Of a DNA stretch of 64,000 nucleotides, positions 9,113 through 43,018 are shown piece after piece. Made by a program: the position numbers and the translations under genes. Position 1 is the stretch's first letter. Each line of letters begins with the position of its first letter. The notes below the pieces were generated by a model. That model saw only the letters and a list, made by a program, of their open reading frames with translations, was not told the origin of the DNA and searched no databases. Source of the stretch: Candidatus Binataceae bacterium (GTDB lineage Bacteria > Desulfobacterota > Binatia > Binatales > Binataceae); NCBI GenBank assembly GCA_035650475.1, contig DASRHP010000013.1, positions 21,755-85,754 of the forward strand, in the 5' to 3' direction.

Positions 9113-9586
9113 ATGGCCGAGCGGATCATCGAGATGCTCGGGCCGCACGTCGAGCGCCAGGGCTACGAGCTGGTGTCGGTCGAGTATCACAAGGGCACGC
9201 GCAGCTCGATGCTGCGCCTGCTGGTGGATCGGCCGGGCGGAGGTATCGGGCTTGACGACCTCGAGCGCTTGAGCCCCATCCTCGGCGACCTGCTCGATGT
9301 ATACGACCCAATCGAAGGGCGCTACACGCTCGAAGTGGCTTCGCCAGGACTGAACCGGCCGCTGGTGCGGCTGGCCGACTTCGAAGCCGTACGCGGCGGA
9401 CGCGTCAGGATTAAGACGCATCACGCGCTGGAGGGGCGCAAGGCGTTTGTCGGAAGGCTCGCGGATGTAGGAGCCGACGGCGTCGAGATCGACGACGAGC
9501 CGAGCGGACGGCGGGTGCGGATCGAATTCGGCGAGATAAAGGGAGCGAATTACGAATACGATTTTGATGCAGCCGAGCGCAAATAG
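9113..9586 (+). CDS. rimP: ribosome maturation factor RimP
   Basis: Internal ATG of the 8882 ORF. MAERIIEML ... ELVSVEY ... LEVASPGLNRPL is RimP-like. First gene of the nusA-infB operon. Confidence 0.85.
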   Translation: MAERIIEMLGPHVERQGYELVSVEYHKGTRSSMLRLLVDRPGGGIGLDDLERLSPILGDLLDVYDPIEGRYTLEVASPGLNRPLVRLADFEAVRGGRVRIKTHHALEGRKAFVGRLADVGADGVEIDDEPSGRRVRIEFGEIKGANYEYDFDAAERK

Positions 9587-9649
9587 GTGCACCTCGTCGG
9601 CGGGCGCAATTTTCTCGGGCGGCGCAGCGGCGCGCCCCGTGGAGGCCGT

Positions 9650-16898: not shown

Positions 16899-18035
16899 TC
16901 AGTTGATGCCTTCGCGCACCGGTTGGACCGGCTCGCCGTCGCGCGCCGACTGTCCGACGTTGACCGCGACCAGGTCGCCGATCACCACCCCGCGCGTGAC
17001 CTGCACGTTGATCCCGTCGTCGTAGCCGAGCGTGACCGGCGCCAGGTGCAGCCGGTTGGCGCGCACCACCGGCACGTAGGGCTTGCCGTCGCGAAAGATC
17101 AGCGCGTCGTCGGGCACTATCGGCACGCGCGTCGTTATCCCGACCTGGAACTGCACCCGCGCATACATCCCCGGGTACAGCGCCAGATCCTCGTTGGGCA
17201 GATCGACCTCGACCAGCATCGTGCGCGTAGCCGGGTCGAGCGCGTCGGGATGGCGGGTCACGGAGCCGTCGAAGACGCGCTCGGGATAGTCGGTCACGCT
17301 GACCGTGGCCGGGTCGCCGTCCTTGATGAACGGCGCGACGCTCTGCGGCACGTGGGCGTAAACGCGCACCGGGCGCAGCGTCGCCATCGCGATCAGCGGC
17401 ATCTCGGCGGTGGTCCCGCCGGTGGCCTGCGGAATCAGCTTGCCCGGATCGGCGTAGCGCGCGGTGACCACGCCGGAGAAGGGCGCGCGGATGGTCTCGT
17501 AGGCCTGGGTCGCGGCGAGCTGCTCGTAGGTCGCCTTGGCCTGCAGCATCGCGGTGTGCGAGTCGTCGGCGGTCTGTTCCGCGATAACGCTCTGGCGCGC
17601 GAGGGTCTGGTTGCGGCGGTCGGTGATCGCGGCGAGGTTGTAAGCGGCGCGCGCGTTGGCCACCTGCTGGTCGAGTTCGGGCGAAGCCAGCAGGGCGATT
17701 ACCTGGCCGCGCTTGACGCGGTCGCCCTTGTCAACCCGAATTTCTTCGAGATAGCCGGGAATCTTCGCATACACCGGGGTTTCGATGTAGCCGTGGATCT
17801 CGCCCGGCAGATCGAGCGAGCGCGAGCGCGGCGCGGGTCCGACCTCGCGCACCAGCACGCGCTGGCCGCGTGCGACTTCCGCCTCGCGCTCCGAGGCCGC
17901 GCGCTGAAGCCACAGGCTGCGCGCCGCGACCAATCCGGCGGTGCCAGCCACCGCCACGATCACCGCGACCACCCATCCGAGGTAAAACCTCCGGCCGGGC
18001 TTGCGCGGCGCGTAATTCCTTGGGTCGTCGTCCAT
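16899..18035 (-). CDS. efflux RND transporter periplasmic adaptor (membrane fusion protein)
   Basis: ATG at 18035, 20 nt after the stop of the upstream permease. TM anchor, then HlyD/MFP barrel-sandwich, lipoyl and beta-barrel motifs. Confidence 0.8.
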   Translation of the reverse strand: MDDDPRNYAPRKPGRRFYLGWVVAVIVAVAGTAGLVAARSLWLQRAASEREAEVARGQRVLVREVGPAPRSRSLDLPGEIHGYIETPVYAKIPGYLEEIRVDKGDRVKRGQVIALLASPELDQQVANARAAYNLAAITDRRNQTLARQSVIAEQTADDSHTAMLQAKATYEQLAATQAYETIRAPFSGVVTARYADPGKLIPQATGGTTAEMPLIAMATLRPVRVYAHVPQSVAPFIKDGDPATVSVTDYPERVFDGSVTRHPDALDPATRTMLVEVDLPNEDLALYPGMYARVQFQVGITTRVPIVPDDALIFRDGKPYVPVVRANRLHLAPVTLGYDDGINVQVTRGVVIGDLVAVNVGQSARDGEPVQPVREGIN

Positions 18036-18055
18036 CTCCGTCGCCAGATCTGTCC

Positions 18056-21000
18056 CTATGCGCCGGGCACGATCGCCTCGACCTCGGCGTCGCGTTGATG
18101 CTTGCCGATGACGTGGCCGCTGAGCAGCGAGTAGGCCGCCGGCACCGCGAACAGGGTCATGAACGTGGCGACCAGCAGCCCGCCGATCACGGCCAGGCCG
18201 AGCGGCGCGTTGATGCTGCCGCCCAGCGCCATCGGCAACATCCCGAGCACCATCGCCAGCGCCGTCATTATCACCGGGCGCAGACGCGTGCGCGCGCCCT
18301 CGATCGCCGCCGCCGTGGGGCTGTAGCCCTGCTCGCGCAGATCGTTGGCGAAGATGATGAGCAGGTTGCCGTTGGCGACGCCCACGCCGACCGCCATAAT
18401 CGCGCCCATCAGCGATTCCACGTTGATCGTCGTGTGGGTCAGCGCGAGCATCCACAGCACGCCCGCCAGCGCGCCAGGCACCGCGAGCAGGATGATGAAC
18501 GGTTCCGCCCACGACTGGAAGTTGGTCACCATCAGCAGGTACACGAGGATGACCGCGAGGATGAGCCCCTGTCCGAGACTCGCGAACGACTCGCGCATCG
18601 CCTGGCTCTGGCCGCGGATGACGATCTTCACGCCGGACGGCGGCTTACCCAGCGCATCGATCGCGCGCTGCACCGCCGCCGATGCGCTGCCGAGGTCGCG
18701 CCCCGATACCGAGCAGTTGACGTCGATGACGCGCTGGACGGTGTAGTGGTTGATGACCGCCGGCTCGACTTCCTGCGTGATGGTGGCGAGGTTGCCGAGA
18801 AATTGCGGTGGCGTCTGGGCGCCGGCGCCGTCCAGACGCCCCGGATTGAGCGGCGTCGCGGCCAGCGCCTGAACCGAGTTGATCATGTGCTGCGGAGTTT
18901 GCGCCAGCACGCTGTAGTTGACACCGTTTTCCGGATTCAGCCAGAAGTTCGGCGCGAGCAGCGTGTTCGAGCTGAGCGACGTCAGCAGGCTGGAGGCGAC
19001 CTGCTGCTGGGTCACGCCGAGCTCGAGCGCCTTGGCCCGATCGACCTTGACCCGCAGGGTCGGGTAGTCGAGGTGCTCGGCAATTCGCAGATCGAGCAAG
19101 CCCGGAATTTTGGCCATCCGCGCGCGCAGCCGGCGCGCCACGGCGTAGTCTTCCTCCAGGTTGTTGCCCGAGATCTGTGCGTCGATCGGCGCCGAGAGCC
19201 CGAAGTTCAGCACCTGGCTGATGATGTCGGCGGCCTGGAAGTAAACGTCAACGCCGGGAAAGCCGCGCGCCAGCACGGCGCGGATTTTGCGCTGGTACTC
19301 GCGGGTCGAATGATGGTCGGGCGTCAGCGAGATCAGGATGTCGGCGTCCTGCGGGCCGGTCGAGTCGCTTTGGTAGTAGGAGAGGTTGTAGTAGGTCGGC
19401 AGCCCGATGTTGTCGCTTATCGAGTCGAGTTCGGAAGCTGGAATCACAGTGCGAATCGCGCGCTCGATGCGATCGACGATGAGCTCGGTATGTTCGATGC
19501 GGGTGCCGGTCGGCGCGCGCACGTGCAGCCGCATCAGGCCGGCGTCAACGTCCGGGAAGAAGTCCTCGCCCACCACCAGCACCAGCGCGACCGAGGCGAG
19601 CACGATCGCGGCCACGCATCCGAGCGCGAAGCCGCGGCACGCCACGAACGCGCCGAGCGCCGCGCGGTAGCGCTCGCGGAAGTGTTCGAAGCCGGCCTCG
19701 AAGGCGGCCAGGAAGCGCCCGAGCAGGCTGCGCGGCGTCGTGTGCTCGTAATGCTCGGGCAGCAGGTAGCGCGCCATCATCGGCACCAGCGTGCGCGAGA
19801 GCAGGTACGAGGTCAGCATCGCGTACACCACCGCCAGCGCCAGCGGCGTGAACAAAAAGCGCGCCACGCCGTAGAGCAGCACCACCGGGAAGAACACGAT
19901 GCAGATCGCAAGCGTGCCGACCAGCGCCGGCGCCGCGATCTCGGCGGAGCCGTCGAGGATCGCCGCCAGCAGCGGCTTGGGCATCGCGTGGTGGCGATGG
20001 ATGTTCTCGACCGCCACGGTCGCGTCGTCCACCAGCATCCCGACCGCCAGCGCGAGTCCGCCCAGCGTCATCGTGTTGATGGTTTGTCCGGAAAGCTTGA
20101 GCGCGACTATCGCGGTCAGAATCGACAGCGGGATCGAGACGATCACCATCACCATCGAGCGCCCCGACCCCAGGAAAATGAGCACCATCAGGGCGACCAG
20201 CCCGGCCGCAATCGCGGCCTCGCGCACGACCTCCCATAGCGCGTCGCGCACGAACTTCGACTGGTCGAACGTCAGCTTGAGCTTGAGCCCGTTGGGCGCG
20301 GTGGCAAGGATCTCCGGCAGCTTGGCCTTGACCGCGCTGACCACCGCGAGCGTCGATGCTGCCGCATGCTTGACGATCGCCAGGTAGGTCGCGCGCTTGC
20401 CGTTGACCCGCACGATATTGGTCTGCACCTGGTGCGAGTAGCTCACCGGCGCGACGTCGCCGAGCAGCACCGGCGTGCCTGCGGCGACCTTGACCGGCAG
20501 ATCGTTGAATTCGGCCGGGTGGTCGGGCGTGCCGTTGAGCTCGACGTTGTACTCGCGGTTGCCGATCTTCACCGTGCCGCCGGGGATAGTGACGCTCGAT
20601 TGGTTGACTGCCGTGCTCACGTCGGCGGGCGAGAGGTTCTGGGCGTAAAGCGCCTCGGGATGCAGGTTGACCATCATCGCGCGGCTCACCCCGCCGAACG
20701 GCGCCGGCGAAGAGAGCCCCTCGATGGTGAAGAGCTTGACCCGGATGAAGTTGAGCCCATAGTCGAACAGCGCCTGCTCCGAGAGGGTGTCGCTGTAGAC
20801 GTCGAGTTGCGCCACCGGCACGTTGGCGGCATTGTAGTCGATGATGTCGGGGGCGACGGTGCCCGGCGGCATGATGTGCAGGATGCCCTCGCTCTCGGAG
20901 CTTATCTGCGCGATTGCTGCGGCGACGTCCTGGTCGGGATGAAAGTAAACGCGCAGCATCCCGATCCCATCCATCGCGGTCGATTCGATGTGCTCGATGC

Positions 21001-21229
21001 CGTTGACCTCGGTGGAGAAGGCGCGCTCGCTGATCCAGACCATCCGCCGCTCCATCATCAGCGCCGACAGCCCGGGGTAGTTCCAGATGACCTCGACCAC
21101 TGGGAGGTTGATGACCGGAAAGATGTCGGCGTTCATGCGGGTGAAGGCGAGCACACCCAGCACCAGCATCAGCAGCGCCATCACCGCGATCGAATGCGGC
21201 CGGCGTAGCGCGAAGCGGACGATCCACAT
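18056..21229 (-). CDS. efflux RND transporter permease (AcrB/HAE-type)
   Basis: 1057 aa. 12-TM architecture with two large periplasmic loops. N-terminus MWIVRFALRRP ... is typical of RND permeases. Confidence 0.88.
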   Translation of the reverse strand: MWIVRFALRRPHSIAVMALLMLVLGVLAFTRMNADIFPVINLPVVEVIWNYPGLSALMMERRMVWISERAFSTEVNGIEHIESTAMDGIGMLRVYFHPDQDVAAAIAQISSESEGILHIMPPGTVAPDIIDYNAANVPVAQLDVYSDTLSEQALFDYGLNFIRVKLFTIEGLSSPAPFGGVSRAMMVNLHPEALYAQNLSPADVSTAVNQSSVTIPGGTVKIGNREYNVELNGTPDHPAEFNDLPVKVAAGTPVLLGDVAPVSYSHQVQTNIVRVNGKRATYLAIVKHAAASTLAVVSAVKAKLPEILATAPNGLKLKLTFDQSKFVRDALWEVVREAAIAAGLVALMVLIFLGSGRSMVMVIVSIPLSILTAIVALKLSGQTINTMTLGGLALAVGMLVDDATVAVENIHRHHAMPKPLLAAILDGSAEIAAPALVGTLAICIVFFPVVLLYGVARFLFTPLALAVVYAMLTSYLLSRTLVPMMARYLLPEHYEHTTPRSLLGRFLAAFEAGFEHFRERYRAALGAFVACRGFALGCVAAIVLASVALVLVVGEDFFPDVDAGLMRLHVRAPTGTRIEHTELIVDRIERAIRTVIPASELDSISDNIGLPTYYNLSYYQSDSTGPQDADILISLTPDHHSTREYQRKIRAVLARGFPGVDVYFQAADIISQVLNFGLSAPIDAQISGNNLEEDYAVARRLRARMAKIPGLLDLRIAEHLDYPTLRVKVDRAKALELGVTQQQVASSLLTSLSSNTLLAPNFWLNPENGVNYSVLAQTPQHMINSVQALAATPLNPGRLDGAGAQTPPQFLGNLATITQEVEPAVINHYTVQRVIDVNCSVSGRDLGSASAAVQRAIDALGKPPSGVKIVIRGQSQAMRESFASLGQGLILAVILVYLLMVTNFQSWAEPFIILLAVPGALAGVLWMLALTHTTINVESLMGAIMAVGVGVANGNLLIIFANDLREQGYSPTAAAIEGARTRLRPVIMTALAMVLGMLPMALGGSINAPLGLAVIGGLLVATFMTLFAVPAAYSLLSGHVIGKHQRDAEVEAIVPGA

Positions 21230-21448: not shown

Positions 21449-21526
21449 GGGGTCGTAGTTCAGCCCGGTTAGAACGCCGGCCTGTCACGTCGGAAGTCGT
21501 GGGTTCAAATCCCATCGGCCCCGCCA
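21449..21526 (+). tRNA. tRNA-Asp (anticodon GTC)
   Basis: Cloverleaf by manual folding: acceptor GGGGTCG/CGGCCCC, anticodon loop CTGTCAC, T-loop TTCAAAT, encoded CCA. Confidence 0.85.
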
Positions 21527-25191: not shown

Positions 25192-26235
25192 CTAGGCCAC
25201 GCGGCGCATCAACTCCAGGATGTCGTAGCCTGTGATCGCGCGGCTCTTCTCCGACCAGTCCTTGAGCTCGCGCTCGCTCACCATCCCGGCCTGCGCTCCC
25301 TTGGCGAGATCCATCAGCGCGATCTTGATCGTCGCCTCGTCGATCATCTCGCCGGTCTTGGGGTCGGCCATCGAGCCGCCGCCCTTTTCGTGGTACAGGC
25401 GGACCACCCGGCGGGCCTCCTCGACTTGGTCGGCGCTCGGGGTGTAGCAGGCGTTGGCTATCTCGGCTTGCTGCGGATGGATGACCCAAGTGCCGTCCAT
25501 GCCGAGATTGGCGGCGCCGATGTTCTTTTCGCGCAGGCCGCGCTGCAACTCGGCTATCCGCTCGGGCGAATCGTCCTTACGCCACAGCCGCAGATAGACG
25601 TTATCGATCGCGTGCAGGCCGGCCGCCTTGGCCGCGACCACCATCGACTGCTTGGCGTAATGGAAGTTCTGATTCTGACCCTCGACGATCTCGCGCACGC
25701 CGAGGTTGGCGGCGAAGTCGGCGATCCCGAAGACCAGGCCGCACATCCGGTCTGAGGCGGTGGCGATATCGTAGGCTTTGATCAGTGCGTGCGGCGTCTC
25801 GATCAGCGACTCTATCTGGACCTTGTACTTCCATCCGCTGCGCTTCTCCAGGTCGTCGAGCATCCGCGACACCTCGCGGATCTCCTCCGGGCCGCGCGTC
25901 TTGGGCAGGATGATCCCGTGGAAGCGGTTGGGCGCGCCGAGCATGATCGCTTCCATGTCGCCCTTGAAGAAGGGCGAGTGGATGTTGTTAGGCCGCACGG
26001 TGACTACCTTGCGCCCGAAGTTCAGCGTGTTGAGCGCCTCGACCATCACCTTGTGGCTCTTGGGCCCTTTGAACTCGTAGGGGCAAGCGTCCTCGAAGTC
26101 CGCCATCACATGGTCCACCGGGGCTTTGATCGGGTCGGCGGCGGTTTGATGGAGCTTCATGCTGTGGCCGGGATAGGTCATCTCGGTGCGTGGGATGACG
26201 AAGCGGTTGCCATTGTCGAGAATGAACATGGTCAA
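25192..26235 (-). CDS. HpcH/HpaI aldolase / citrate-lyase beta (CitE) family, malyl-CoA-lyase-like
   Basis: 347 aa with CitE/Mcl architecture (ADFEDA ..., GIADFAANLG ..., TWVIHPQQA). Confidence 0.7.
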   Translation of the reverse strand: MTMFILDNGNRFVIPRTEMTYPGHSMKLHQTAADPIKAPVDHVMADFEDACPYEFKGPKSHKVMVEALNTLNFGRKVVTVRPNNIHSPFFKGDMEAIMLGAPNRFHGIILPKTRGPEEIREVSRMLDDLEKRSGWKYKVQIESLIETPHALIKAYDIATASDRMCGLVFGIADFAANLGVREIVEGQNQNFHYAKQSMVVAAKAAGLHAIDNVYLRLWRKDDSPERIAELQRGLREKNIGAANLGMDGTWVIHPQQAEIANACYTPSADQVEEARRVVRLYHEKGGGSMADPKTGEMIDEATIKIALMDLAKGAQAGMVSERELKDWSEKSRAITGYDILELMRRVA

Positions 26236-26327
26236 TTTTTCTCCGTTCAGCGGTATGTTTCCGCTGCAAAAGTTGCCGCCAAGGAGCGCGGTTAGCGTCC
26301 TGGCGCCGCAGAATAGTCACCTCAGTT

Positions 26328-26343
26328 TGGCATCGCCATTGCT
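26328..26343 (+). promoter_or_regulatory. candidate sigma-54 promoter (TGGCAT-N5-TTGCT)
   Basis: TGGCATCGCCATTGCT matches the GG-N10-GC consensus spacing exactly. Lies 268 nt upstream of the MDR reductase gene. Confidence 0.35.
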
Positions 26344-26610
26344 AGGGTGGATGCCGAGGACCACAATGCGCGCACGATTGGCTGGCCGGGACGGGCCTCG
26401 CGATCCAAAACGGGCGGCCTTTGGCGCGGGCGGCCGAACGAATCGGAACTCGACCGCTGCGCGCTTGGTTTTTACGGCATTGAACGCAAGCCGTCAACCG
26501 AGCACTTGGGCAGGTGCGAACCGCCCCAGTTGCGCGAGCGGCCGCAAACGTATAGCTAATTTCGCACCCCTAGGCACCTACCCAAGGGCCTTAGATAAAC
26601 GGACTATTCG

Positions 26611-27654
26611 ATGAAGGCGATTGCATTCGAGCGCAATGGAGGCGTGGAGGTCCTTCGATATCAGGACGTTGCTGAACCCAAAGCCGGCCCCAATGAGGTC
26701 GTGATCAAGGTCAAGGCTTCGGCGTGCAATTTCAATGACATTTGGGCCCGCCGCGGCCTGCCCGGGATGAAAATCATCCTTCCGCACATCTCGGGCTCCG
26801 ACGCCGCCGGCGAAGTGGTTGACCGCGGCAGCGAGGTCAAAGACATCGCAATCGGCGACGAGGTCGTGGTCCATTGCGGCATCGCCTGCCGCCATTGCTA
26901 CTATTGCACCCGCGGCGAGGAATTCTTCTGCCACGACTTCAAGATCTGGGGCTTCCAGACCGGGCCGCTCGACGGCGCCCACGGCGAGTACTGCAAGGTG
27001 CCGGCGGTCAACGTGCTGGCCAAGCCGCGCAACCTGAGCTTCGAGGAGGCGGCCTCGATGCCGCTGGTGCTGGTGACGGTGTGGCGGATGCTGGTGACGC
27101 GCGCGCGCATGCGGGCCGGCGATTTCGTCCTGATCTGGGGCGCCACCGGCGGGCTGGGCGTGATGGCGATCCAGATCGCCAAGCTTTTCAACGCGCGGCC
27201 GATCGCGGTCGCCTCCAGCGACGAGAAGCTCGAGCTGGCGCGCAAGCTGGGCGCTGAGTTCACGCTCAACCGCAAGCGCGACGACATCTTCCAAGAGGTC
27301 CGGCGAATAACCGACGGCAGGCGCGCCGACATCGTCTTCGAGCATACTGGTGCCGACACCTGGCCGCTTTCGATGCAGTGTCTGAAGTGGGGCGGGACGA
27401 TTGTGACCTGCGGCGCCACTTCCGGCTTTGACGCCCACATGGACATCCGTCTGCTATGGAATAAGCAGCAGAACTATCTCGGCTCCCATCTTGGGAATAA
27501 GGGCGAGCTGATCGAGGCGATGCGGTTTGTCGAGCGCGGGCTTATCAAGCCCGTCATCGACCGCGTGATGCCGCTTAGGGAGCTGGGCAAAGCGCAGGAG
27601 CTGATGGAGAACAATATCGTGGCGGGCAAAATCGTGATGCTGCCCGAGGCGTAG
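26611..27654 (+). CDS. zinc-binding alcohol dehydrogenase / MDR-family oxidoreductase
   Basis: 347 aa with Zn-ADH architecture (structural Cys cluster CRHCYYC) and a GATGGLG Rossmann motif. Confidence 0.8.
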   Translation: MKAIAFERNGGVEVLRYQDVAEPKAGPNEVVIKVKASACNFNDIWARRGLPGMKIILPHISGSDAAGEVVDRGSEVKDIAIGDEVVVHCGIACRHCYYCTRGEEFFCHDFKIWGFQTGPLDGAHGEYCKVPAVNVLAKPRNLSFEEAASMPLVLVTVWRMLVTRARMRAGDFVLIWGATGGLGVMAIQIAKLFNARPIAVASSDEKLELARKLGAEFTLNRKRDDIFQEVRRITDGRRADIVFEHTGADTWPLSMQCLKWGGTIVTCGATSGFDAHMDIRLLWNKQQNYLGSHLGNKGELIEAMRFVERGLIKPVIDRVMPLRELGKAQELMENNIVAGKIVMLPEA

Positions 27655-32623: not shown

Positions 32624-33958
32624 TTACTCGATGCCATAGCGTTTGCGCCGGCGCCAGAGCGTGGTGACGTTGATGCCGAGCGTGGCCGCGGCTTCCTCGA
32701 GCGTCGCGCTCTGCGCGAGGACGCGCGCGATGTGCTTTCGCTCGACTTCGTCGAGGCTTGCCGTTTGGCCAATCTCGGCAGTCTCCGCAGTCCGCTCGCG
32801 GAAGAGCGAATCGGGCAGGTCGTTGAGTGTAATCGCTTCGCTGCGGCTCAGCACGGCGGCGCGCTCGAGCGCGTTGCGCAACTCGCGCACGTTGCCCGGC
32901 CATCGGTAAGCCTGAATCGCCGCCGCCGCTTCCGGCGCCAGGCATATCGGCGGACGGCGGTTGCGCACGCTTGCCGCCGCAAGCAGCCATTCGGCCAGCG
33001 GCAGGATATCCTCGCGGCGCTCGCGCAGCGGCGGTACTGCCAGCGAGATCACGTTGAGGCGGTAGAACAGATCCTCGCGGAAGCGGCGCGCGGCGACCTC
33101 GGCGTCAAGGTCGCGGTTGGAGGCGGCGATAATCCGAATGTCAACGCGGATGGTGCGGTCGCCGCCGACCCGCTCGAAGCTCTGTTCCTGCACGAAGCGC
33201 AGAAACTTGGTCTGGAGCGCGCCCGAGAGATCGGCGATCTCGTCGAGGAACACGGTGCCGCCGTCGGCCGCTTCCAGCCGTCCGGGTTTGTCCTTGATCG
33301 CGCCGGTAAACGCGCCGCGCACGTGGCCGAACAGCTCGCTCTCGAGCAGCTCCTCGGAAAGCGTCGTGCAATTGACCACGACGAAGGGGCGCTCGTGGCG
33401 CGGGCTCCATTGATGGATTTGGCGGGCGAGCACGTTCTTGCCGGTGCCGCTCTCGCCGGCGAGCAAGATGGTGGCGTCGCTGGCGGCGGCCTGACGCGCT
33501 ATCTCGAGCAGCCGCACCATCGCCGGGCTGCGCGACTCGAGCATCGGCGCCTCGTCGATCGCGTTGCGCAGCGCGCGGTTCTCGGCTTGGAGGCGCTGCA
33601 TCTGGAGCGCGCGTTCGACGATGGGCTGGATCTGATCGAGCGAGAATGGCTTGGTGACATAGTCGTACGCGCCCGCCTTCATCGCGGCCACCGCGTTCTC
33701 CACCGTCGCGTAGGCGGTCATCAGAATGACGACGGTTTCCGGGCGGCGGCGCTTGAAGTCGGCGAGCAGCTCGAGCCCGTTGATCTCCGCCATCCGGTAG
33801 TCGGTCAGCACGAGGTCAAAGCCGTTTTCCTCGGCCAACGTGCTCGCCTCGCGCCCGCTGGCGGCGGTGTGCACCTCGTGGCCGAGCACTTCAAAGAAGG
33901 CCGCCAGGCTCGAGCGGATATTGCGCTCGTCGTCGACTATAAGCAGCCGCACCGTCAT
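32624..33958 (-). CDS. sigma-54-dependent response regulator (NtrC family)
   Basis: REC domain (DDE...D...K), AAA+ domain with GESGTGK and the GAFTGA sigma-54-interaction motif, C-terminal HTH. Start overlaps the upstream kinase stop. Confidence 0.92.
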   Translation of the reverse strand: MTVRLLIVDDERNIRSSLAAFFEVLGHEVHTAASGREASTLAEENGFDLVLTDYRMAEINGLELLADFKRRRPETVVILMTAYATVENAVAAMKAGAYDYVTKPFSLDQIQPIVERALQMQRLQAENRALRNAIDEAPMLESRSPAMVRLLEIARQAAASDATILLAGESGTGKNVLARQIHQWSPRHERPFVVVNCTTLSEELLESELFGHVRGAFTGAIKDKPGRLEAADGGTVFLDEIADLSGALQTKFLRFVQEQSFERVGGDRTIRVDIRIIAASNRDLDAEVAARRFREDLFYRLNVISLAVPPLRERREDILPLAEWLLAAASVRNRRPPICLAPEAAAAIQAYRWPGNVRELRNALERAAVLSRSEAITLNDLPDSLFRERTAETAEIGQTASLDEVERKHIARVLAQSATLEEAAATLGINVTTLWRRRKRYGIE

Positions 33959-35748
33959 GCCTCCCGCGTTGCGGGCAGCTGAACGACGAAGCGGCTGCCG
34001 TGGGGCGTGTTGCCGGTCACGAAAATTCTTCCGCTGTGCGCCATCACGATGTCTTTGACGATCGCCAGCCCGAGCCCGGCCGAGCCTTTCTTCTCGCCGT
34101 CGGCGCCGTACTGCGCGAAGCGTTCGAAGATGTAGTCGCGCAGCTCGGGCGCGATGCCGGGGCCGGAGTCGGCGACCTCAAGGCGCACGGTGTCGTCAGC
34201 CGAGCTGGTCGCGACCTCGATCCGTCCACCGGCGGGCGTGTAGCGCAGCGCGTTGCCGATCAGGTTGGAGACCAACCACGACAGCTTGACCGGGTCGCCG
34301 GTGACCTGCGGCACCGCCTCGACATGCTTATCGAGCCGCACGTGCTTGTCTTCGAGCTGGAGGGCGAAGCGGCCGATGACTTCGTCGGTGATGCGCGCCA
34401 GGTCCAGGCGCTTACGGGCGAGCGAGATCGAGCCCAATTCGCCGCGGGCAAGGCCAAGCAGGTTGTCGGTGAGCTGCTTCATCCGCGCGCACTCCTCGAG
34501 GATGGTGCGCAGCAGTTCGCGCTGGCGCGGCTCGAGCGAGACCTCATCACGCTGCAGCAATTGCGCGGAGAGCGTGAGCGAAGTCAGCGGTGTGCGCAGC
34601 TCGTGCGAGAGCGTCTCGATCAGGTTGGAGCGCGCGCGGTCCTGGTCGCGCAGGTAGGTTACGTCCTGGAGGATGAGCAGCGTGCCGAAAACGCCATCGG
34701 TGTCGTCCCGGCGCAGCGCGATCGGCTTGAGCACGTAGGAGTGATCGCGCCCGCGCACGTGGAGCTGCACTTCGGTGCGCGGAACTTCGGGCGCTGCGCG
34801 CCTGAGTCCGCGCAGCGCGTCGCGCACACGCAGGTAATGCGGCGAGTTGCTGCTCAGATCGTCGAACGGACTGCCCAGCGCCTCGCGCGGCGCGATGTCG
34901 AGGATGAGCGAGGCGATCTCGTTGATATGGGTGACTACGCCCTCGGGGTCGATCAGCACCACGCCATCCTCGAGGCTCTCGATAATCGCTTCGGTCTTGC
35001 GCTTTTCGAAGAGCAGGCGCTCGACATTGAGCTTCTCGTACTGCTCGAGCTGCTCGGCCATCTGGTTGAATTCGCGCGCCACCGCGTCGAGCTCGGCCAG
35101 CGGCTGCGGCCCCAGGCGCACCTGCGTACGCCGCTGGCTTACTCCGCGCAGGCGCTCGGCGAGCTCGGTCAGCGGCCGCGCCAAAGCCCATCCGAAGCCC
35201 CACGACACCGCCGCGCCTGCGAGCAACAGCACCGCCAGGCAGATTGCGAACTCGTAGCTCAGCCGAGTGCCGAGGCGGGTCGCGCGGCTGTTGGCGCGGA
35301 ACATCGCCGCCTGGTTCATCGCGATGAGGTCGTTTAGGCGCGCGTGCAGCTCCTCGAACTGCCGATCGTGCCGCGGCCCCGGCGGCGCGCTTGCAATCTC
35401 GCCGAACAGCCGCCGCGCGCGCTGCTCGATATCATGCGCGAGCTGGGGCTCGCCGATCTCCGTGTAGTCGTGGTTCTCGACCTCCATCCAGTGCATGAAG
35501 GTCTGGCGCTGGCGCGCCAGCTCTTCGGCTGCGCGGCCGTCGCGCTCGGCGAGCTGGAGCACGCGCAGCGCGGCGTGCATGTGCTGGGCCGCTTCGATGC
35601 TGACGTAGTTGCGGTACAGGGTTTCGCGGATCGCGCCGCCGAGGCGGTAGACGCGGGGCAGCGCGTAGATTCCGACGCCCATCACCAGCGCTAGCATCAG
35701 CAGCGTGGCATTGCGGATGCGCGAGCGCAGGGAGGGCAGCGCGCTCAT
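33955..35748 (-). CDS. sensor histidine kinase (TM-HAMP-PAS-HisKA-HATPase)
   Basis: 597 aa. H-box LSHELRTPL, plus N, G1 and G2 boxes. Start overlaps the KdpD-N stop (ATGA), stop overlaps the regulator start. Confidence 0.88.
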   Translation of the reverse strand: MSALPSLRSRIRNATLLMLALVMGVGIYALPRVYRLGGAIRETLYRNYVSIEAAQHMHAALRVLQLAERDGRAAEELARQRQTFMHWMEVENHDYTEIGEPQLAHDIEQRARRLFGEIASAPPGPRHDRQFEELHARLNDLIAMNQAAMFRANSRATRLGTRLSYEFAICLAVLLLAGAAVSWGFGWALARPLTELAERLRGVSQRRTQVRLGPQPLAELDAVAREFNQMAEQLEQYEKLNVERLLFEKRKTEAIIESLEDGVVLIDPEGVVTHINEIASLILDIAPREALGSPFDDLSSNSPHYLRVRDALRGLRRAAPEVPRTEVQLHVRGRDHSYVLKPIALRRDDTDGVFGTLLILQDVTYLRDQDRARSNLIETLSHELRTPLTSLTLSAQLLQRDEVSLEPRQRELLRTILEECARMKQLTDNLLGLARGELGSISLARKRLDLARITDEVIGRFALQLEDKHVRLDKHVEAVPQVTGDPVKLSWLVSNLIGNALRYTPAGGRIEVATSSADDTVRLEVADSGPGIAPELRDYIFERFAQYGADGEKKGSAGLGLAIVKDIVMAHSGRIFVTGNTPHGSRFVVQLPATREA

Positions 35749-36899
35749 CGCTCTTCCCCGGCCTGGATGGCCACGACTTCAACGTCGAAGTCGACCGCCT
35801 CCTCGAGCAGGCGCTTGGTGATGTCGCGCCCGAGCAGACGGCGCCACAGCGGCTGATGCGTGCGGCCGAGCACGATCTTGGTGATCCCGTGCGTACGGGC
35901 GAAGTCCAGCAGCGCCTGCGTCACGTTGTCCGATTTAAGCCACACGCTTTCGGCGCCGAGATCGCTGGCGAGGTTGATGTTGTCAAGCAGGGCCACGAAG
36001 TCGCGAGTGCTGATGCGGCTGACCGACTCGGCCGGAGTCTCAACATGCACGGCATACCAGTCGGCGCCAAGCTGGCCGGCGATGCGGCAGGCCTTGCGCA
36101 GCAGCTCGCGCGCGGCGTGCGGATTGGACGATAGCCCGACCATCACCCGCTCGGCCGGCTGGGCGCGGCGTCCGCCCTCGCGCTGGAGCGCCTCGCGATC
36201 CTCGCGCTGGCGGCAGAGCCCGCGCGCGACCTCACGCAGCGCGATCTCGCGCAGCGAGGCCAGGTTGCTGGGCTTGAAAAAGCTGCGCAACGCCTGTTCG
36301 ACCTGCGGCGGCGGGTAGATTTTGCCCTCGCGCAGCCGCTCGCGCAGCGCCTCGGCGGTGATGTCGACATTGACCACCTGGTCGGCGCGGGCTAGAAAGC
36401 TGTCGGGCACGGTCTCACGCACGTCGACCCCGGTGAGCCGCTTCATCAGCGGGTTCAAACTCTCGACGTGCTGGATATTCATCGCAGTGATTACGTTGAT
36501 GCCCGCGGCGAGCAGTTCCTCGACGTCCTGGTAGCGTTTCTCGTGCTTGGAGCCGGGGACGTTGGTGTGCGCAAGTTCGTCGACCACCACGACCTCAGGC
36601 TTGCGCGCCAAAGTCGCGTCCAGGTCCATCTCCTCCACCGTCGTGCCGCGATACTCGACGCGCCGGCGCGGGATCACTTCGAGGTCTCCAACCTTGGTCA
36701 GCGTTTCGGCGCGGCCGTGGGTCTCGATCAGCCCGAGCACCACATCGACGCCGTGCTCGCGGAGTTGATGCGCTTCCTCCAGCATCCGCCAGGTCTTGCC
36801 CACGCCCGCTGCGGCACCGATATAAATCTTGAGCCTGCCCTTCGGCGACTGGGCGACCAGGTCGAGAAATGATTCAGGCTCAGGCCGCTCCTCGTCCAT
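35745..36899 (-). CDS. kdpD: KdpD N-terminal sensor domain plus USP domain protein (stand-alone, no kinase domain)
   Basis: 384 aa. IYIGAAAGVGKTWRMLEEAHQLREHGVDVVLGLIETHGRAET ... MNIQHVESLN matches the KdpD N-terminal (Kdp-sensing) domain, followed by a universal-stress-protein-like domain. No TM or HisKA domains. Confidence 0.85.
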   Translation of the reverse strand: MDEERPEPESFLDLVAQSPKGRLKIYIGAAAGVGKTWRMLEEAHQLREHGVDVVLGLIETHGRAETLTKVGDLEVIPRRRVEYRGTTVEEMDLDATLARKPEVVVVDELAHTNVPGSKHEKRYQDVEELLAAGINVITAMNIQHVESLNPLMKRLTGVDVRETVPDSFLARADQVVNVDITAEALRERLREGKIYPPPQVEQALRSFFKPSNLASLREIALREVARGLCRQREDREALQREGGRRAQPAERVMVGLSSNPHAARELLRKACRIAGQLGADWYAVHVETPAESVSRISTRDFVALLDNINLASDLGAESVWLKSDNVTQALLDFARTHGITKIVLGRTHQPLWRRLLGRDITKRLLEEAVDFDVEVVAIQAGEER

Positions 36900-36928: not shown

Positions 36929-37513
36929 TCAGCGCTGTCGCTGACCGAGGTGGTCGAGGGCCAGGTTCAGGTCCAGGACGTTGACGCCGGGCTCGCCAAA
37001 CACGCCGGCGAATCGCGGGCGGGTGTGCTCGCGCACGAGACCCTCCACCACGTCAGGGCTCAGGCCGCGCGCTTTAGCGACGCGTGCGACCTGGAGTTGC
37101 GCGTCGGCTGGGCTAATCTCCGGGTCGAGGCCGCTGCCCGAGGCGGTAACCATTCCCGTCGGCACCTGCTGAGGCGTGGCGCCCGGGTTCTCTTCGAGCA
37201 CCTTGTGCAGCGCGTCCCGGACGTCGTCGATGAGCTTGCGGTTGGTCGGGCCGAGGTTGGAGCCGCCCGAGTCGGAAGCGTCGTAGCCCCTGGCGCCGGC
37301 ATCCGAAGGTCGGGGATGGAAGTAGCGCGCCTGGGTGAAGCTCTGGCCGATCAACTCTGAGCCGATTACCTGCCCGCTGCGCACGATGAGGCTGCCATTG
37401 GCCTGCCAGGGGAAGGCAGTCTGCGCGATTACATAGACCGCGAGCGGATAGATGATGCCGGTCACCACCGTCAGCGCTATCACCATCGCGATCGCGGAAA
37501 GCAGCGTGCGCAT
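36929..37513 (-). CDS. kdpC: potassium-transporting ATPase subunit C
   Basis: 194 aa. N-terminal TM, then the KdpC pattern (ASGSGLDP, GLVREHT). Confidence 0.9.
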   Translation of the reverse strand: MRTLLSAIAMVIALTVVTGIIYPLAVYVIAQTAFPWQANGSLIVRSGQVIGSELIGQSFTQARYFHPRPSDAGARGYDASDSGGSNLGPTNRKLIDDVRDALHKVLEENPGATPQQVPTGMVTASGSGLDPEISPADAQLQVARVAKARGLSPDVVEGLVREHTRPRFAGVFGEPGVNVLDLNLALDHLGQRQR

Positions 37514-37524
37514 GTCTCGCTTCC

Positions 37525-39567
37525 TTATGCCAGGTGCAGAGCTGCGACTAGCAAATCAATCGCCTTGATGCCGATGAACGGGATGAGCACGCCGCCCAGG
37601 CCGTAGATGAAGAGGTTGCGGGTCAGGATCGCCGCCGCGCCGAGCGGGCGGTAGGCAACGCCGCGCAGCGCCAGCGGGATGAGCGCGATGATGATCAGCG
37701 CGTTGAAGATGACCGCCGACAGAATCGCGCTCTGCGGAGTTGCCAGGTGCATGATGTTGAGCGACTGGAGTTCGGGATATTCCACCACGAACATCGCCGG
37801 GATGATCGCGAAATACTTGGCGACGTCGTTGGCGATCGAAAAAGTGGTCAGCGCGCCGCGCGTCATCAGAAGCTGCTTGCCGATCTCGACGACCTCCATG
37901 ATTTTGGTCGGGTTGGAGTCGAGGTCGACCATATTGCCGGCCTCGCGCGCGGCCTGGGTGCCGGCGTTCATCGCGACCCCGACGTCGGCCTGCGCCAGCG
38001 CCGGCGCGTCATTGGTGCCGTCACCGATCATCGCGACCAGTTTGCCCTGCGCCTGCTCCTCGCGGATGAGCTGGAGCTTGGTCTCGGGCGTGGCTTCGGC
38101 GCGAAAGTCGTCGACGCCGGCCTCATAGGCGATGGCGGCGGCGGTCAACGGATTGTCGCCGGTGATCATCACCGTACGCATGCCCATCGCGCGCAGGCGG
38201 GCGAAACGCTCGCGGATGCCCTCCTTGATAATGTCTTTGAGGTGAATCACGCCGAGCACGCGCGGGCCGTCGGCGACCACCAGCGGCGTGCCGCCCGCGC
38301 GCGCGATGCGCTCGACGATTCCCGCCAACTCGGGCGGCGCGGCGCCGCCGTTTTCCCTGACGAACTTCACCACTTGGTCGGCTGCGCCCTTGCGTACTCG
38401 GCGGCCGTTGAGGTTCACCCCGCTCATGCGGGTCTGCGCCGAGAACGGGATGAATTCCGCCTCATGCTCGGCGAGTTCGCGTCCGCGGAGGTTGTATTCG
38501 CGCTTGGCCAGCACCATGATCGAGCGGCCCTCCGGCGTCTCGTCGGCGAGCGAGGCCAATTGCGCGGCGTCGGCCAGTTCCTCGATTCGGGTGTCGAGCA
38601 CGGGGATGAACTCGGTTGCCATCCGGTTGCCGAGCGTGATCGTGCCGGTCTTGTCGAGCAGCAGGGTGTCAACGTCGCCGGCCGCCTCGACCGCGCGCCC
38701 TGACATCGCGAGCACGTTGTGCTGAACGAGCCGGTCCATCCCGGCGATGCCGATTGCCGAGAGCAGGCCGCCAATGGTCGTGGGAATCAGGCATACCAGC
38801 AGCGCAACCAGCACCGGCAGCGAAAGCGAGGTTCCGCCGTAGCGCGCGAACGGATAGAGGCTCACGCAGACCAGCATGAAGATGATCGTCAGGCCGGCGA
38901 GCAGGATGCTGAGCGCGATTTCGTTGGGCGTCTTCTGGCGCTGCGCGCCCTCGACCAGGTTAATCATGCGATCGAGGAAGGTCTCGCCGGGGTTGGCAGT
39001 GATGCGCACCTTGATGTGGTCCGAGATAACCGTGGTGCCGCCGGTTACCGCGCTGCGGTCACCGCCGCTCTCGCGAATCACCGGCGCCGATTCGCCGGTT
39101 ATCGCCGCCTCGTTGACCGCCGCGATTCCCTCGATCACTTCGCCGTCGCCGGGAATCATGGCGCCCGCCTCGACCAGCACTATGTCGCCGCGTTTGAGCC
39201 TGGTCGCCGGCACCATCCGCACCGCGCCGTCCTGCCCGACCAGCTTGGCCTGGGTCTCGGTGCGGGTCTTGCGCAGGTTATCGGCTTGCGCCTTGCCGCG
39301 CCCCTCTGCCATCGCTTCGGCAAAGTTCGCAAACCCCACCGCGAACCACAGCCATAGCGCGATTTGAAACTCGAAGAGGGCGAGCCCGAACTGTCCCTCG
39401 AGAAAGTCGCGGATCAGGATCAGGGTGACCGCGGCCGCGGTGACCTCGACCACAAACATCACCGGGTTGCGTAGCTGGATGCGCGGGTCGAACTTGCGCA
39501 TCGAGTTGAACAGCGCGCCCCGCACGATCTGACGGTCCCACAGCGCCGTCGCCTTACGCTCTGCCAT
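37525..39567 (-). CDS. kdpB: potassium-transporting ATPase subunit B (P-type ATPase)
   Basis: 680 aa with DKTGTIT phosphorylation motif, TGDNPLTA and [12 protein letters not shown]. Confidence 0.95.
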
Positions 39568-39613: not shown

Positions 39614-41338
39614 CTAGTAGAGCTTGCCCTTCATCATGACGAGGTGTTCGACGATCGGCCCCAGCGCGTCGACCGGGAAGAACGTCAGCGCGGCGACGAT
39701 CAGGACCACGCCGACCAGCAGCACGACGAAGATCGCGCCATTGGTAGGAAAGGTCCCGGCGCTCGGTGGTACCGCCTTCTTGCCCGCCAGCGACCCGGCC
39801 AGCGCGAGCACCGGGATCTTCATCATGAAACGGCCGAACAGCATCACGAACGCAAGCGTCGAGTTATAGAAGGGGGTGTTCGCATTGAGCCCGGCGAAGG
39901 CCGAGCCGTTGTTGGCTGAGGCCTCGGTGTAGGCGTAGAGAATCTGCGTGAGGCCGTGCGGCCCGGGATTTGTGATCCCGGCAAGGCCAGGCTTGGTCAC
40001 CACGGCGATGCCGGCCAGGATCAAGATCACCGCGGGAAAGATCAGGATGAAGAGCATAGCGAGCTTCATCTCGCGCCCCTCGATCTTCTTGCCCAGGTAC
40101 TCCGGCGTGCGCCCCACCATCAGCCCCGCGATGAACACCGCGAGCACCGCCATCACCAGCATCCCGTAAAGTCCCGAACCGACGCCGCCGAAGATGATCT
40201 CGCCGAGCTGCATGTTGACCAGGGGGACCAGTCCGCCGAGCGGGGTGAAACTGTCGTGCATCGAGTTCACCGCGCCGCACGAGCTGTCGGTAGTGACCGT
40301 CGCCCACAGCGCCGAGTCAACGATGCCGAAGCGCGTCTCCTTGCCCTCCATGTTGCCGCCGCTGTCGCCGGGCGCGGCGGCCTGGCTGATTCCCAGTTTG
40401 GCGAACTCGGGATTGCCCCGTTGCTCGGCCCAAATCGCTGGCGTCACGCCCATCAGAAAGAGGATTGCCATCGCGCCGAACAACGCCCATCCCTGACGCC
40501 GGTCACCCGTCATTTGGCCGAAGGTGTGCGTCAGCGCCGCGCCGATCGCGAAGATCGCCAACAGCTCAATCAAGTCGCTGAGCGGAGTAGGGTTTTCATA
40601 GGGGTGGGCGGCGTTGGCGTTGAAGAAGCCGCCACCGTTGGTCCCGAGTTCCTTGATGATCTCCTGCGAAGCGACTGGACCTTCGGCGATCACCTGCTCG
40701 GCGCCCTCGACGGTCCTTGCATGGACATAAGGGCTAAAGTTCTGCGGCACCCCCTGCCATACCAGCGCCAGCGCGCCGACTAGCGAGATCGGCAGCAGCA
40801 CCCACAGCGTCGCGCGAGTCAAATCGACCCAGAAGTTGCCGATGGTCCTCGCGCCGGAGCGGACGAAGCCGTGGATAACCGCAATCGCGACCGCGATGCC
40901 GGCCGCGGCGGAGACAAAATTGTGAAAGGCGAGCCCGGCCATCTGCGTCAGATAGCTCATCGTGGTTTCGCCGCCGTAGGCCTGCCAGTTGGTATTGGTG
41001 GTGAAGCTTGCCGCCGTGTCGAAAGCGAGATCGGGCGCGACTCCGGCGAAGTGCTGCGGGTTGAGCGGCAGGAACGCCTGCAAGCGCTGCATCGCGTAGA
41101 GCACGATCATTCCGACCATGCTGAACAGCAGCATCGCGATCGCGTACTCCCGCCAAGTCATCTCCGCGCCCGGACGTACGCCGCACAACCGATAGATCAG
41201 GCGTTCGACCGGCTCCAGCATCGGGTCGAGGAAGGTCCGCTCGCGGGCGAACACGCGCGCCATGTAAAGGCCGAGCGGCACGCTTACCGCGGTGACGATA
41301 GCGAGAAAAATCCCCACCTGGAGGACGGCATTCCACAT
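39614..41338 (-). CDS. kdpA: potassium-transporting ATPase subunit A
   Basis: Start taken at the internal ATG (41338, MWNAVLQVGIF...). The upstream 46 codons of the ORF look like non-coding read-through. KdpA-like 10-TM channel subunit. Confidence 0.9.
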   Translation of the reverse strand: MWNAVLQVGIFLAIVTAVSVPLGLYMARVFARERTFLDPMLEPVERLIYRLCGVRPGAEMTWREYAIAMLLFSMVGMIVLYAMQRLQAFLPLNPQHFAGVAPDLAFDTAASFTTNTNWQAYGGETTMSYLTQMAGLAFHNFVSAAAGIAVAIAVIHGFVRSGARTIGNFWVDLTRATLWVLLPISLVGALALVWQGVPQNFSPYVHARTVEGAEQVIAEGPVASQEIIKELGTNGGGFFNANAAHPYENPTPLSDLIELLAIFAIGAALTHTFGQMTGDRRQGWALFGAMAILFLMGVTPAIWAEQRGNPEFAKLGISQAAAPGDSGGNMEGKETRFGIVDSALWATVTTDSSCGAVNSMHDSFTPLGGLVPLVNMQLGEIIFGGVGSGLYGMLVMAVLAVFIAGLMVGRTPEYLGKKIEGREMKLAMLFILIFPAVILILAGIAVVTKPGLAGITNPGPHGLTQILYAYTEASANNGSAFAGLNANTPFYNSTLAFVMLFGRFMMKIPVLALAGSLAGKKAVPPSAGTFPTNGAIFVVLLVGVVLIVAALTFFPVDALGPIVEHLVMMKGKLY

Positions 41339-41361
41339 GATGAGCGGCCTTGCACGCGCGG

Positions 41362-41454
41362 CTAGAAGCGCTCGGGGTGCAGCAGCGCCCAGACCAGGTA
41401 GGCGATCAGAAGGACTGCGCCCACCGAACCCAAGATCAACTCCCAACCGCTCAT
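41362..41454 (-). CDS. kdpF: potassium-transporting ATPase subunit F (KdpF peptide)
   Basis: 30 aa MSGWELILGSVGAVLLIAYLVWALLHPERF, a single TM, ending 24 nt before kdpA. Not in the ORF track (too short). Confidence 0.75.
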   Translation of the reverse strand: MSGWELILGSVGAVLLIAYLVWALLHPERF

Positions 41455-41546
41455 AGCCGGCGGCATCCTTCGACATAGGCGACGCTGATCGCGAAGAAGG
41501 TGACGCTCGCCGCGAGGAAGACTAGATCCAGCATGTCAGCCTTAAA

Positions 41547-41562
41547 AGCAGAAGCCGTGCCA
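41547..41562 (-). promoter_or_regulatory. candidate sigma-54 promoter of the kdp operon (TGGCACG-N4-CTGCT on the - strand)
   Basis: Minus-strand TGGCACGGCTTCTGCT, GG and GC at consensus spacing, about 93 nt upstream of kdpF. Confidence 0.5.
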
Positions 41563-41974
41563 GAACCAACACGGCTCAGAAGCGGGAATTTTCCACCCCC
41601 TCCGTAATTCAGGATGCAGACTGCACTGGGAGGCCTTGCACTTCGCAATCGCTTGAAGAGCAACGACTCACCAGCCGTCAGAGCGTCAGCCGCGGGTGGC
41701 GGCGGAACCAACAATGTGTTCGGATGGCGCGGCGCACGGGAACGCGTGGGCACAACGAGCCGAGCGTTTCCGGCCAGCGTGGCTTACTAACCATGTTTCA
41801 ATCCAAAAAGAACGAAACCATCCAAGGGCCGAAGCGCCGGTTCCGCCCCCGACGACCGCTATCGGACTCGTCGGGCACGCCAGTTAGATCGCGAGCCGCC
41901 TGATGCGTTGCGCGCCGTGCAGTCGAGCCGCTACAGTGGCACGGACGCGAGCGCAGCACGGAATCCGTCCATGA

Positions 41975-43018
41975 ATGCAGAAAGCTACTCTCCGCGTCGG
42001 AGTTTTCAGTCGTATGGTACGACATGGAATCACGGCGCCACTTGAGGCGTTCCAGAATCAGCACTTCGTGGAACTCGTGCGGACGGCCGAACGTTGCGGC
42101 TATGTCGACGTGTGGTCGTTTGAATCGTTTGCGACCGACGCCTTCGCGCCGCTGGCGGCGGCGGCGATGATCGCGCCGAAGATGCGCCTGGGCACGGCGA
42201 TCGTGCCGGTTTTCACGCGGCCGCCAGCACTGATCGCGATGTCGGCGGCGACGGTTCAGCAACTTTCGAGCGGGCGTTTCGTCCTGGGCCTGGGAATTTC
42301 CAGCCGGACTATCGTCGAGCAATGGATGGGCGTGCCGTTCGAGCACCCGCTGACGCGCCTGCGCGAGACGGTCGCCGCGATTCGCGATTCGTTCCGCGGC
42401 GGCAAGGTGAACTTCAGCGGCAAGACCGTGCACATCAACGGCTTCCGCCTCAGCGTGACCCTGGATACGCCGCCGCCGATCTATCTCGGCGCCCAGGGCG
42501 CGAAGATGCTCCGGCTGGCCGGCGAGATCGGCGACGGGCTAATCACCAACTTCGTCACGCCGGCGACGCTGCCCGCGATGCTCGAGCACGTGCGCGAGGG
42601 GCGGCGCGCCGCGGGCAAGGATCCCGCCGCGCCGCTCGACGTCGTCTGCCGCATCATGATCGCCGTCGATGACGACGAGGAGAAGGTGCGCGCTGAATTG
42701 CGGCGCCATCTGACCGCCTACGTGACGGTCCCGACCTACAACGCCTTCTTCCGCGAGATCGGCTTCGAACGCGAGGCCAGGCTCGCGTTGGAGGCGTGGA
42801 ACGCCGGCGACCGCAAGGCGGCGCTCGCCTCGCTGCCCGAGCGGATGATCGAAGAGATCTACGTCTTCGGCAGCGTCGCCAACTGCCGACGGCGGTTAGA
42901 GCAATACCTCCGGGCCGGCGTGACGACGACCGCGCTCGAGTTCGAGTCGTTTGCCCCCGATCCGAAGGAGCGTCGCGCGCGTATTCTGCGCGCGGCCGAG
43001 CGCTTGGCGCCGGCCTAG
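41975..43018 (+). CDS. LLM-class F420-dependent oxidoreductase-like protein
   Basis: 347 aa luciferase-like TIM barrel (LGLGISSRTIVEQWMGVPFEHP). Confidence 0.75.
   Translation: MQKATLRVGVFSRMVRHGITAPLEAFQNQHFVELVRTAERCGYVDVWSFESFATDAFAPLAAAAMIAPKMRLGTAIVPVFTRPPALIAMSAATVQQLSSGRFVLGLGISSRTIVEQWMGVPFEHPLTRLRETVAAIRDSFRGGKVNFSGKTVHINGFRLSVTLDTPPPIYLGAQGAKMLRLAGEIGDGLITNFVTPATLPAMLEHVREGRRAAGKDPAAPLDVVCRIMIAVDDDEEKVRAELRRHLTAYVTVPTYNAFFREIGFEREARLALEAWNAGDRKAALASLPERMIEEIYVFGSVANCRRRLEQYLRAGVTTTALEFESFAPDPKERRARILRAAERLAPA

Follow-up and report, generated by a model that had tools for sequence, protein, structure and literature searches.

The stretch of DNA analysed here (64 kb in length, 'the window') carries a kdp operon on its minus strand. 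The genes of the potassium pump, kdpF (41362..41454; Pfam Potass_KdpF, 1e-6; TIGR02115, 1.9e-6), kdpA (39614..41338; Pfam KdpA, 1.3e-251), kdpB, encoding the P-type ATPase (37525..39567; Pfam E1-E2_ATPase and Hydrolase), and kdpC (36929..37513; Pfam KdpC, 1.3e-74), are followed by three regulatory genes on the same strand. The first of these (35745..36899) encodes a split KdpD, a soluble protein of 384 residues with the KdpD N-terminal sensor (Pfam KdpD, 1.2e-95) and a Usp domain; it has neither the kinase domains nor a transmembrane-like segment and scores 378 bits against NCBIfam KdpD_non_kinase, under the cut-off of that model. The second (33955..35748) encodes a membrane histidine kinase of 597 residues with two transmembrane segments and HAMP, PAS, HisKA and HATPase domains. 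The third (32624..33958), at the 3' end of the operon, encodes a response regulator of 444 residues composed of REC, Sigma54_activat (AAA+; 3.9e-67) and HTH_8 domains, and is thus of the NtrC type as initially annotated. Its GAFTGA loop is encoded at ~33316 on the minus strand, and no other GAFTGA protein is encoded in the 64-kb window. The best NCBIfam similarities of the regulator are to AtoC, NtrC and ZraR, each under its cut-off, and no equivalog cut-off is reached. The start of the kinase gene overlaps the stop of the KdpD-N/Usp gene and the start of the regulator gene overlaps the stop of the kinase gene, an arrangement that makes translation of all three from a single mRNA very likely.

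Upstream of kdpF lies a spacer that ends at a divergent luciferase-like monooxygenase gene, which starts at 41975. The initial annotation described this region as locally lower in GC and free of ORFs. The first statement holds to a modest degree (0.585-0.63 for the spacer vs 0.62-0.70 for the flanking genes). The second does not, since a conserved 27-codon ORF (41451..41534, minus strand) sits directly before kdpF; it encodes a hydrophobic peptide, MLDLVFLAASVTFFAISVAYVEGCRRL, and its stop overlaps the kdpF start in the sequence ATGA. A KdpA-based scan, with one genome per species, gave 80 kdp loci for comparison. The nearest of these (L001-L006) come from Candidatus Binataceae and other Binatota metagenome-assembled genomes (MAGs), with 80-67% KdpA identity, and all six carry the small ORF at equal length and with the same CTATGA junction. 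Overall, it is present in 22 of 81 kdp loci. It was noted, besides the window, in L001-L006, L019, L021, L023, L026, L035, L042, L047, L048, L061, L066, L069, L071, L073, L078, L080 and L081 (the last at 2956-3084), and it occurs in Binatota, Alphaproteobacteria (Azospirillum, Rhizobium, Sinorhizobium), Myxococcota (Anaeromyxobacter, Myxococcus), Pirellulales and Chloroflexota-like loci (Limnocylindrales); no Acidobacteriota locus among the 80 has one. The window spacer, used as a blastn query, also matches three Methylobacterium loci (L054, L070 and L079, ~9130-9835) in the small-ORF segment only, and these probably carry the ORF too, missed by the peptide pattern.

The consensus of the peptide is MLD-x9-FF-x5-Y-x3-C-x2-L, with D3, Y20 and C24 invariant and encoded by synonymous codons. 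Pairwise differences at codon positions 1, 2 and 3 amount to 2063, 1531 and 2711; with most variation at the third position, the ORF carries the signature of a translated gene. Judged by these patterns, the stretch that had been taken for a leader is a conserved small coding ORF, predicted to be translationally coupled to kdpF. Neither a Pfam nor an NCBIfam family was found for the 27-residue peptide, and the possibility that it is itself a KdpF (PF09604) was rejected, with an hhalign probability of 1.3% vs the KdpF alignment. An exact look-up of the peptide returns unnamed JGI entries only. On the Azospirillum lipoferum plasmid AZO_p2 the ORF, immediately ahead of kdpF, carries the annotation 'hypothetical protein'; the gene table available for Rhizobium leguminosarum lists no gene at its position. 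A literature search found no published description of an ORF upstream of kdpF, and a ribosome-profiling paper on S. meliloti does not mention kdp. The ORF of the window contains a tandem direct repeat of 21 nt (76% identity), at 41477-41518.

In whole-spacer alignments with the relatives only the small ORF aligns, the monooxygenase neighbour is not syntenic and the 325 nt of spacer next to the monooxygenase gene show no conservation. No Rfam leader or riboswitch is matched at E<=1 in 41300-42100 and none reaches the gathering score there; over the whole window, only a tRNA gene at 21449-21523 (plus strand) does so. Two inverted repeats lie in the non-conserved part of the spacer, GTTTC-N14-GAAAC at 41795-41818 (minus strand) and a perfect 8-bp pair, CCCGACGA/TCGTCGGG, with a 12-nt loop at 41848-41875. 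Both may be part of the region that controls the divergent monooxygenase.

Between the non-conserved spacer and the small ORF is a probable sigma-54 (-24/-12) promoter element, TGGCACGGCTTCTGCT, at 41547..41562 on the minus strand (context ...GTTGGTTC TGGCACGGCTTCTGCT TTTAAGGCTGAC ATG...). Its GG (41561-41560) and GC (41549-41548) are exactly 10 nt apart, the canonical spacing, and its 3' end is 93 nt from the kdpF ATG (41454), both as first reported. It had also been called near-consensus, which is apt: it departs from TGGCACG-N4-TTGCW at one position and is the sole match to that consensus with <=1 mismatch in the 64-kb window. Such matches are expected 0.8 times per window, a chance-level count that does not separate the site from chance; plain consensus counting was therefore dropped in favour of a position weight matrix (PWM) of 19 columns, derived from 87 curated Desulfovibrio vulgaris sigma-54 promoters (PMC4641369, supplementary file 6). 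In a scan with this matrix the 19-mer TCTGGCACGGCTTCTGCTT scores 19.6 bits, the top of both strands over 64 kb. First-order Markov simulation (300 runs on the window) gave a mean maximum of 14.8 bits and ~0.01 sites of at least 19.6 bits per 64-kb window. The score is also above the median of the training promoters (17.7 bits, n = 87) and that of the D. vulgaris kdp promoter, which reaches 15.3 bits on the same D. vulgaris matrix.

Two further sigma-54-like sites stand out elsewhere in the window. One, TTTGGCATCGCCATTGCTA (26326-26344, plus strand; 18.6 bits, against a random-window mean maximum of 14.8), lies in the spacer from which an HpcH-type aldolase gene (25192..26235, minus strand) and a zinc alcohol dehydrogenase gene (26611..27654, plus strand) diverge, 267 nt upstream of the latter and with no activator gene nearby in the window. 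The other, CGTGGCGCGCTTTTTGTTC (19850-19868, minus strand; 16.6 bits), falls inside the ORF of an AcrB-family transporter (18056..21229, minus strand) and is probably fortuitous.

When the 80 loci are ranked by their best PWM score within 700 nt upstream of kdpA, the window comes first, followed by L001 (AATGGCACGTACGCTGCTA), L004 (TACGGCACGTTCTATGCTC), L005 (AGCGGCATGCTTTATGCTG) and L002 (TTTGGCACGCGCGGTGCTG). These top five upstream regions all belong to Binatota operons that end in a homologous activator gene; the split KdpD, the kinase and the activator are found by tblastn as the operon tail in L001, L002, L004 and L005. Activator-linked loci (n = 10) outscore the others (n = 70; Mann-Whitney p = 0.0012), and most of the 80 comparison loci have classical KdpD/KdpE and no strong sigma-54 site. 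The association has exceptions: no strong site occurs within 1.2 kb in L003, L061 and L042, although they share the regulator clade or the operon type (in L003 the activator is present, near the contig end), and L006 has neither a sigma-54 site nor an adjacent regulator. Because the spacer is otherwise unalignable and the neighbouring gene is not shared, the recurrence of the motif does not stem from overall sequence similarity. The score, the gene context and the equivalents in four Binatota relatives support the core of the original reading; very probably, the flagged motif is a genuine sigma-54 promoter that drives the kdp operon.

Some of these loci have features of their own. L001 encodes an extra predicted membrane protein of 70 residues (MDRVTIFGLFAVTT...; 9579-9791, plus strand, -422..-210 from kdpA) between the sigma-54 promoter and the small ORF with kdpF; the extra ORFs that follow the promoters of L001 and L002 have no Pfam match. 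The activator homologue of L002 (~17333-18600, plus strand) matches the window protein over residues 1-350 only and continues in an arginine-rich out-of-frame tail, a probable frameshift or assembly error in that MAG. L066, from Pirellulales, has the same set of split KdpD, kinase and activator and a GTG-initiated small ORF.

Sigma-54 upstream activator sites typically lie about 80-150 bp from the transcription start, and the spacer had been credited with room for them. It contains two phased candidate enhancer dyads, spaced as in the D. vulgaris kdp promoter: a distal one, ATTGCGAAGTGCAAG (41635..41649, minus strand; TTGC-N5-GCAA), centred at about -106 from the predicted start, and a proximal one, AGTGCAGTCTGCATC (41613..41627, minus strand; TGC-N5-GCA), centred at about -84. 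They are 22 bp apart, 87 and 65 nt upstream of the -24 element. A PWM built from the four published sites of the D. vulgaris regulator DVU3334 (two from Hildenborough and two from Miyazaki) finds its best window match in ATTGCGAAGTGCAAG at -87, which ranks within the best 0.02% of positions in the window; the score of the proximal dyad is low (2.1 bits). The same matrix gives matches at -67 in L001, -66 in L002 and -68 in L005, and weak ones in L004 at -87 (score -0.4) and -65 (0.6), so that L001, L002, L004 and L005 each have a dyad at -65 to -68.

Since a matrix from D. vulgaris could bias this result, an unbiased search was run with exhaustive 13-mers over -170..-20 of five promoters. The top shared 13-mer (AATGCGGATTGCA / ATTGCGAAGTGCA / ATTGCAGAATGCA) has its window copy within the distal dyad and a summed match of 44, vs 37.2 +/- 0.9 (maximum 39) for shuffled sequences; its copies are at -91, -87 or -86, at -63 or at -43, that is in steps of ~22 bp. 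The window has two perfect matches to TTGC-N5-GCAA, of which ATTGCGAAGTGCAAG is one, and such matches occur at 0.78/kb upstream of activator-linked loci vs 0.06/kb in the others. The Pirellulales locus L066 has two of them, 31 bp apart (~9599-9642, plus strand, -402..-359 from kdpA), upstream of its best sigma-54-like site, which is weaker (9.1 bits). The double pattern TGC-N5-GCA-N11-TGC-N5-GCA occurs just once in the window against an expectation of 0.03, a figure that is descriptive only as the pattern was set post hoc. Between the dyads and the promoter is an A-tract, GGAAAATTCC (41585..41594, minus strand). By eye, five of six aligned promoters have a tract of four to six A between about -30 and -40, and the tract in the window may provide an intrinsic bend that aids looping.

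The identity of the protein that would bind these dyads bears on an alternative in which the sigma-54 promoter is real and another enhancer-binding protein drives it, or the operon regulator mainly controls other genes, the dyads not being its sites. In favour of this view, the proximal dyad is weak, as noted, and the kdp promoter of D. vulgaris is a target of three different response regulators (PMC3333781). A comparison of 42-residue DNA-binding domains with those of 36 D. vulgaris activators places the regulator of the window closest to DVU3381 (103), then DVU2934 (77), with DVU3334 (70) third. Orthology with DVU3334 was set aside given the better match of DVU3381, the claim being one of shared design, and our use of the DVU3334 matrix rests on similar geometry. 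Against this alternative, the sigma-54 site and an operon-encoded activator co-occur across loci, no other activator is encoded in the window, and dyads of this type at these offsets accompany activators with the same DNA-binding domain in Binatota and in a Pirellulales genome; the C-terminal domain (...LGIxxxTLWRKRKxY) is conserved in the kdp-linked activators of Binatota, Myxococcus (L061) and Pirellulales (L066). We regard control by a different activator as unlikely.

Somewhat less probable still is a chance match, in which case an unrecognised promoter of the sigma-70 or ECF type, elsewhere in the spacer, would drive kdp. There is a precedent in Caulobacter, where kdp has an ECF sigma-T promoter (PMC8552747), and the frequency expected of the plain consensus, together with the several related loci that have no strong sigma-54 site, would fit such a view. 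It is opposed by the rarity of sites with the PWM score of the window promoter, by the position of TGGCACGGCTTCTGCT, which closely precedes the first ORF and is on the correct strand, by the recurrence of the motif in four relatives and by a scan of 41300-42100 that gave no sigma-70-like match. Finally, the motif could be read as the 3' half of an RNA hairpin (41577..41552) with a short U-run, terminating or attenuating a transcript from further upstream, and a terminator-like scan does give an 11-pair stem followed by CTGCTTTT, with a fold of -16.1 kcal/mol (z = -2.2 vs shuffles), but the pairing, though present, is not conserved in four relatives (nothing comparable in L001, L002 and L004, z -1.0 to +0.1, where GG-N10-GC is kept), the U-run is short and interrupted, the minus strand has no gene or promoter-like site upstream, Rfam offers no leader or riboswitch, and we rejected this as the main reading and consider it very improbable indeed.

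The reading of TGGCACGGCTTCTGCT as a sigma-54 promoter leads to a predicted transcription start at 41536 (minus strand), 12 nt downstream of the C of the -12 GC. With that C at 41548, the ATG of the small ORF begins at 41534, i.e. at C+14. The geometry is similar in L001, where the first ORF after the promoter (that of the 70-residue protein) has its ATG at C+13, and the distance from the -12 GC to the small ORF is 26 nt in L005, 60 nt in L004 and ~47 nt in L066. Two curated D. vulgaris promoters that start 29 nt before start codons have the same geometry (PMC4641369). From the promoter-to-ATG distance, the mRNA of the window is predicted to be leaderless or nearly so. The long leader of the initial annotation thus gives way to essentially no leader, as only ~2 nt separate the predicted start from the small-ORF ATG. 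Such a start would exclude AAGG, a possible ribosome-binding site, from the transcript, and translation would therefore have to be leaderless.

Taking the promoter, the dyads and the operon genes together, we consider it likely that TGGCACGGCTTCTGCT is the sigma-54 promoter of the kdp operon and that it works by the following mechanism. The operon would comprise, in order, the ORF of the 27-residue peptide, kdpF, kdpA, kdpB, kdpC and the genes for the KdpD-N/Usp protein, the HAMP-PAS histidine kinase and the NtrC-type regulator. When potassium is scarce, the kinase, probably influenced by the soluble KdpD-N/Usp protein, would phosphorylate the regulator. The regulator would then assemble on the two TGC-N5-GCA dyads, 22 bp apart and ~106 and ~84 bp upstream of the start, and loop to the RNA polymerase-sigma-54 complex at TGGCAC-N5-CTGCT, where ATP would be spent on opening the promoter. 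Transcription would begin near 41536, ~2 nt before the ATG of the small ORF. As the sensor and regulator genes are inside the same operon, the circuit would exert positive feedback on itself. The six-frame translation of the 64-kb window contains neither rpoN nor an RpoN-box motif.

The small ORF, which was outside the claims of the initial annotation, is a more novel item than the promoter system. Missed by most annotation, it may matter more than the promoter. A tentative proposal, which we hold to be possible and somewhat doubtful, is that the 27-codon ORF encodes an undescribed small membrane protein that belongs to KdpFABC or modulates it, and that the mRNA is a leaderless sigma-54 transcript in the window and, for the first ORF after its promoter, in L001. 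The ORF could also explain the 'structured 5' UTRs' reported upstream of alphaproteobacterial kdpF. A Caulobacter study describes a ~100-nt 'highly structured 5' UTR' upstream of kdpF, and this might hold the 27-codon ORF. For the promoter, the candidate enhancer and the predicted start, the coordinates given here can be used for annotation or for a reporter construct.

Among known systems, the E. coli-type KdpD/KdpE arrangement shares with the window the same pump genes, the KdpD N-terminal sensor and a two-component system downstream of kdpC. It differs in having a full-length KdpD, an OmpR-family KdpE and a -35/-10 promoter, whereas the window has a split KdpD, an NtrC-type AAA+ regulator and a -24/-12 promoter; neither a single full-length KdpD kinase nor an OmpR-family KdpE, the marks of the classical system, is encoded in this operon. 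The promoters controlled by NtrC, ZraR and AtoC resemble that of the window in having phased dyads ~80-110 bp upstream of TGGCAC-N5-TTGC, and these regulators are likewise built of REC, AAA+ and Fis-type HTH domains. Their targets are nitrogen, zinc and acetoacetate genes, whereas the predicted target in the window is a potassium pump.

The closest likeness is to D. vulgaris Hildenborough (DVU3339.1-DVU3334). Its operon has kdpFABC, a KdpD split into a K+ sensor with Usp (DVU3336) and a kinase part (DVU3335), and a sigma-54 regulator (PMC3333781), which matches the window in gene order and in having a KdpD sensor/Usp-only protein, a separate PAS kinase and a GAFTGA regulator. By DAP-chip, the operon that encodes DVU3334 is itself a target of this regulator (Rajeev et al., 2011; PMC3333781), which controls it from a sigma-54 promoter. 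There, as predicted in the window, that promoter lies upstream of kdpF and the regulator is encoded within the operon that it targets. The published DVU3334 sites upstream of Hildenborough kdpF, GTTACATTTTGTAAC at -148 and CTTTCATTTTGATAC at -127, and the promoter 19-mer at -61 from kdpF (Kazakov et al., 2015; PMC4641369) put the two sites at -89 and -68, counted from the T of TGGCAC. For D. vulgaris Miyazaki another pair is listed, likewise with 21-bp spacing (PMC4641369). Both systems thus have two 15-bp dyads 21-22 bp apart, at -89/-68 in D. vulgaris and at the predicted positions -87/-65 in the window. The half-sites are spaced alike (TAC-N5-GTA in D. vulgaris, TGC-N5-GCA in the window), the core being A/T in the one and G/C in the other.

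The two systems also differ. The window belongs to the phylum Binatota, unlike D. vulgaris, and is known from sequence alone, and DVU3334 is not the closest match to the DNA-binding domain of its regulator. The window has the extra 27-codon ORF before kdpF, with the promoter abutting the ATG of that ORF, whereas in D. vulgaris the promoter 19-mer is 61 nt before kdpF. By its predicted layout, the window is the DVU3334-type kdp regulon design of D. vulgaris in another phylum, a layout already documented. The control of a high-affinity potassium pump through sigma-54 and a split KdpD, for which D. vulgaris is the one experimental system, would thereby extend to the uncultured phylum Binatota; the regulator domain and dyad sites held in common suggest that Myxococcota and Planctomycetota have this design as well.
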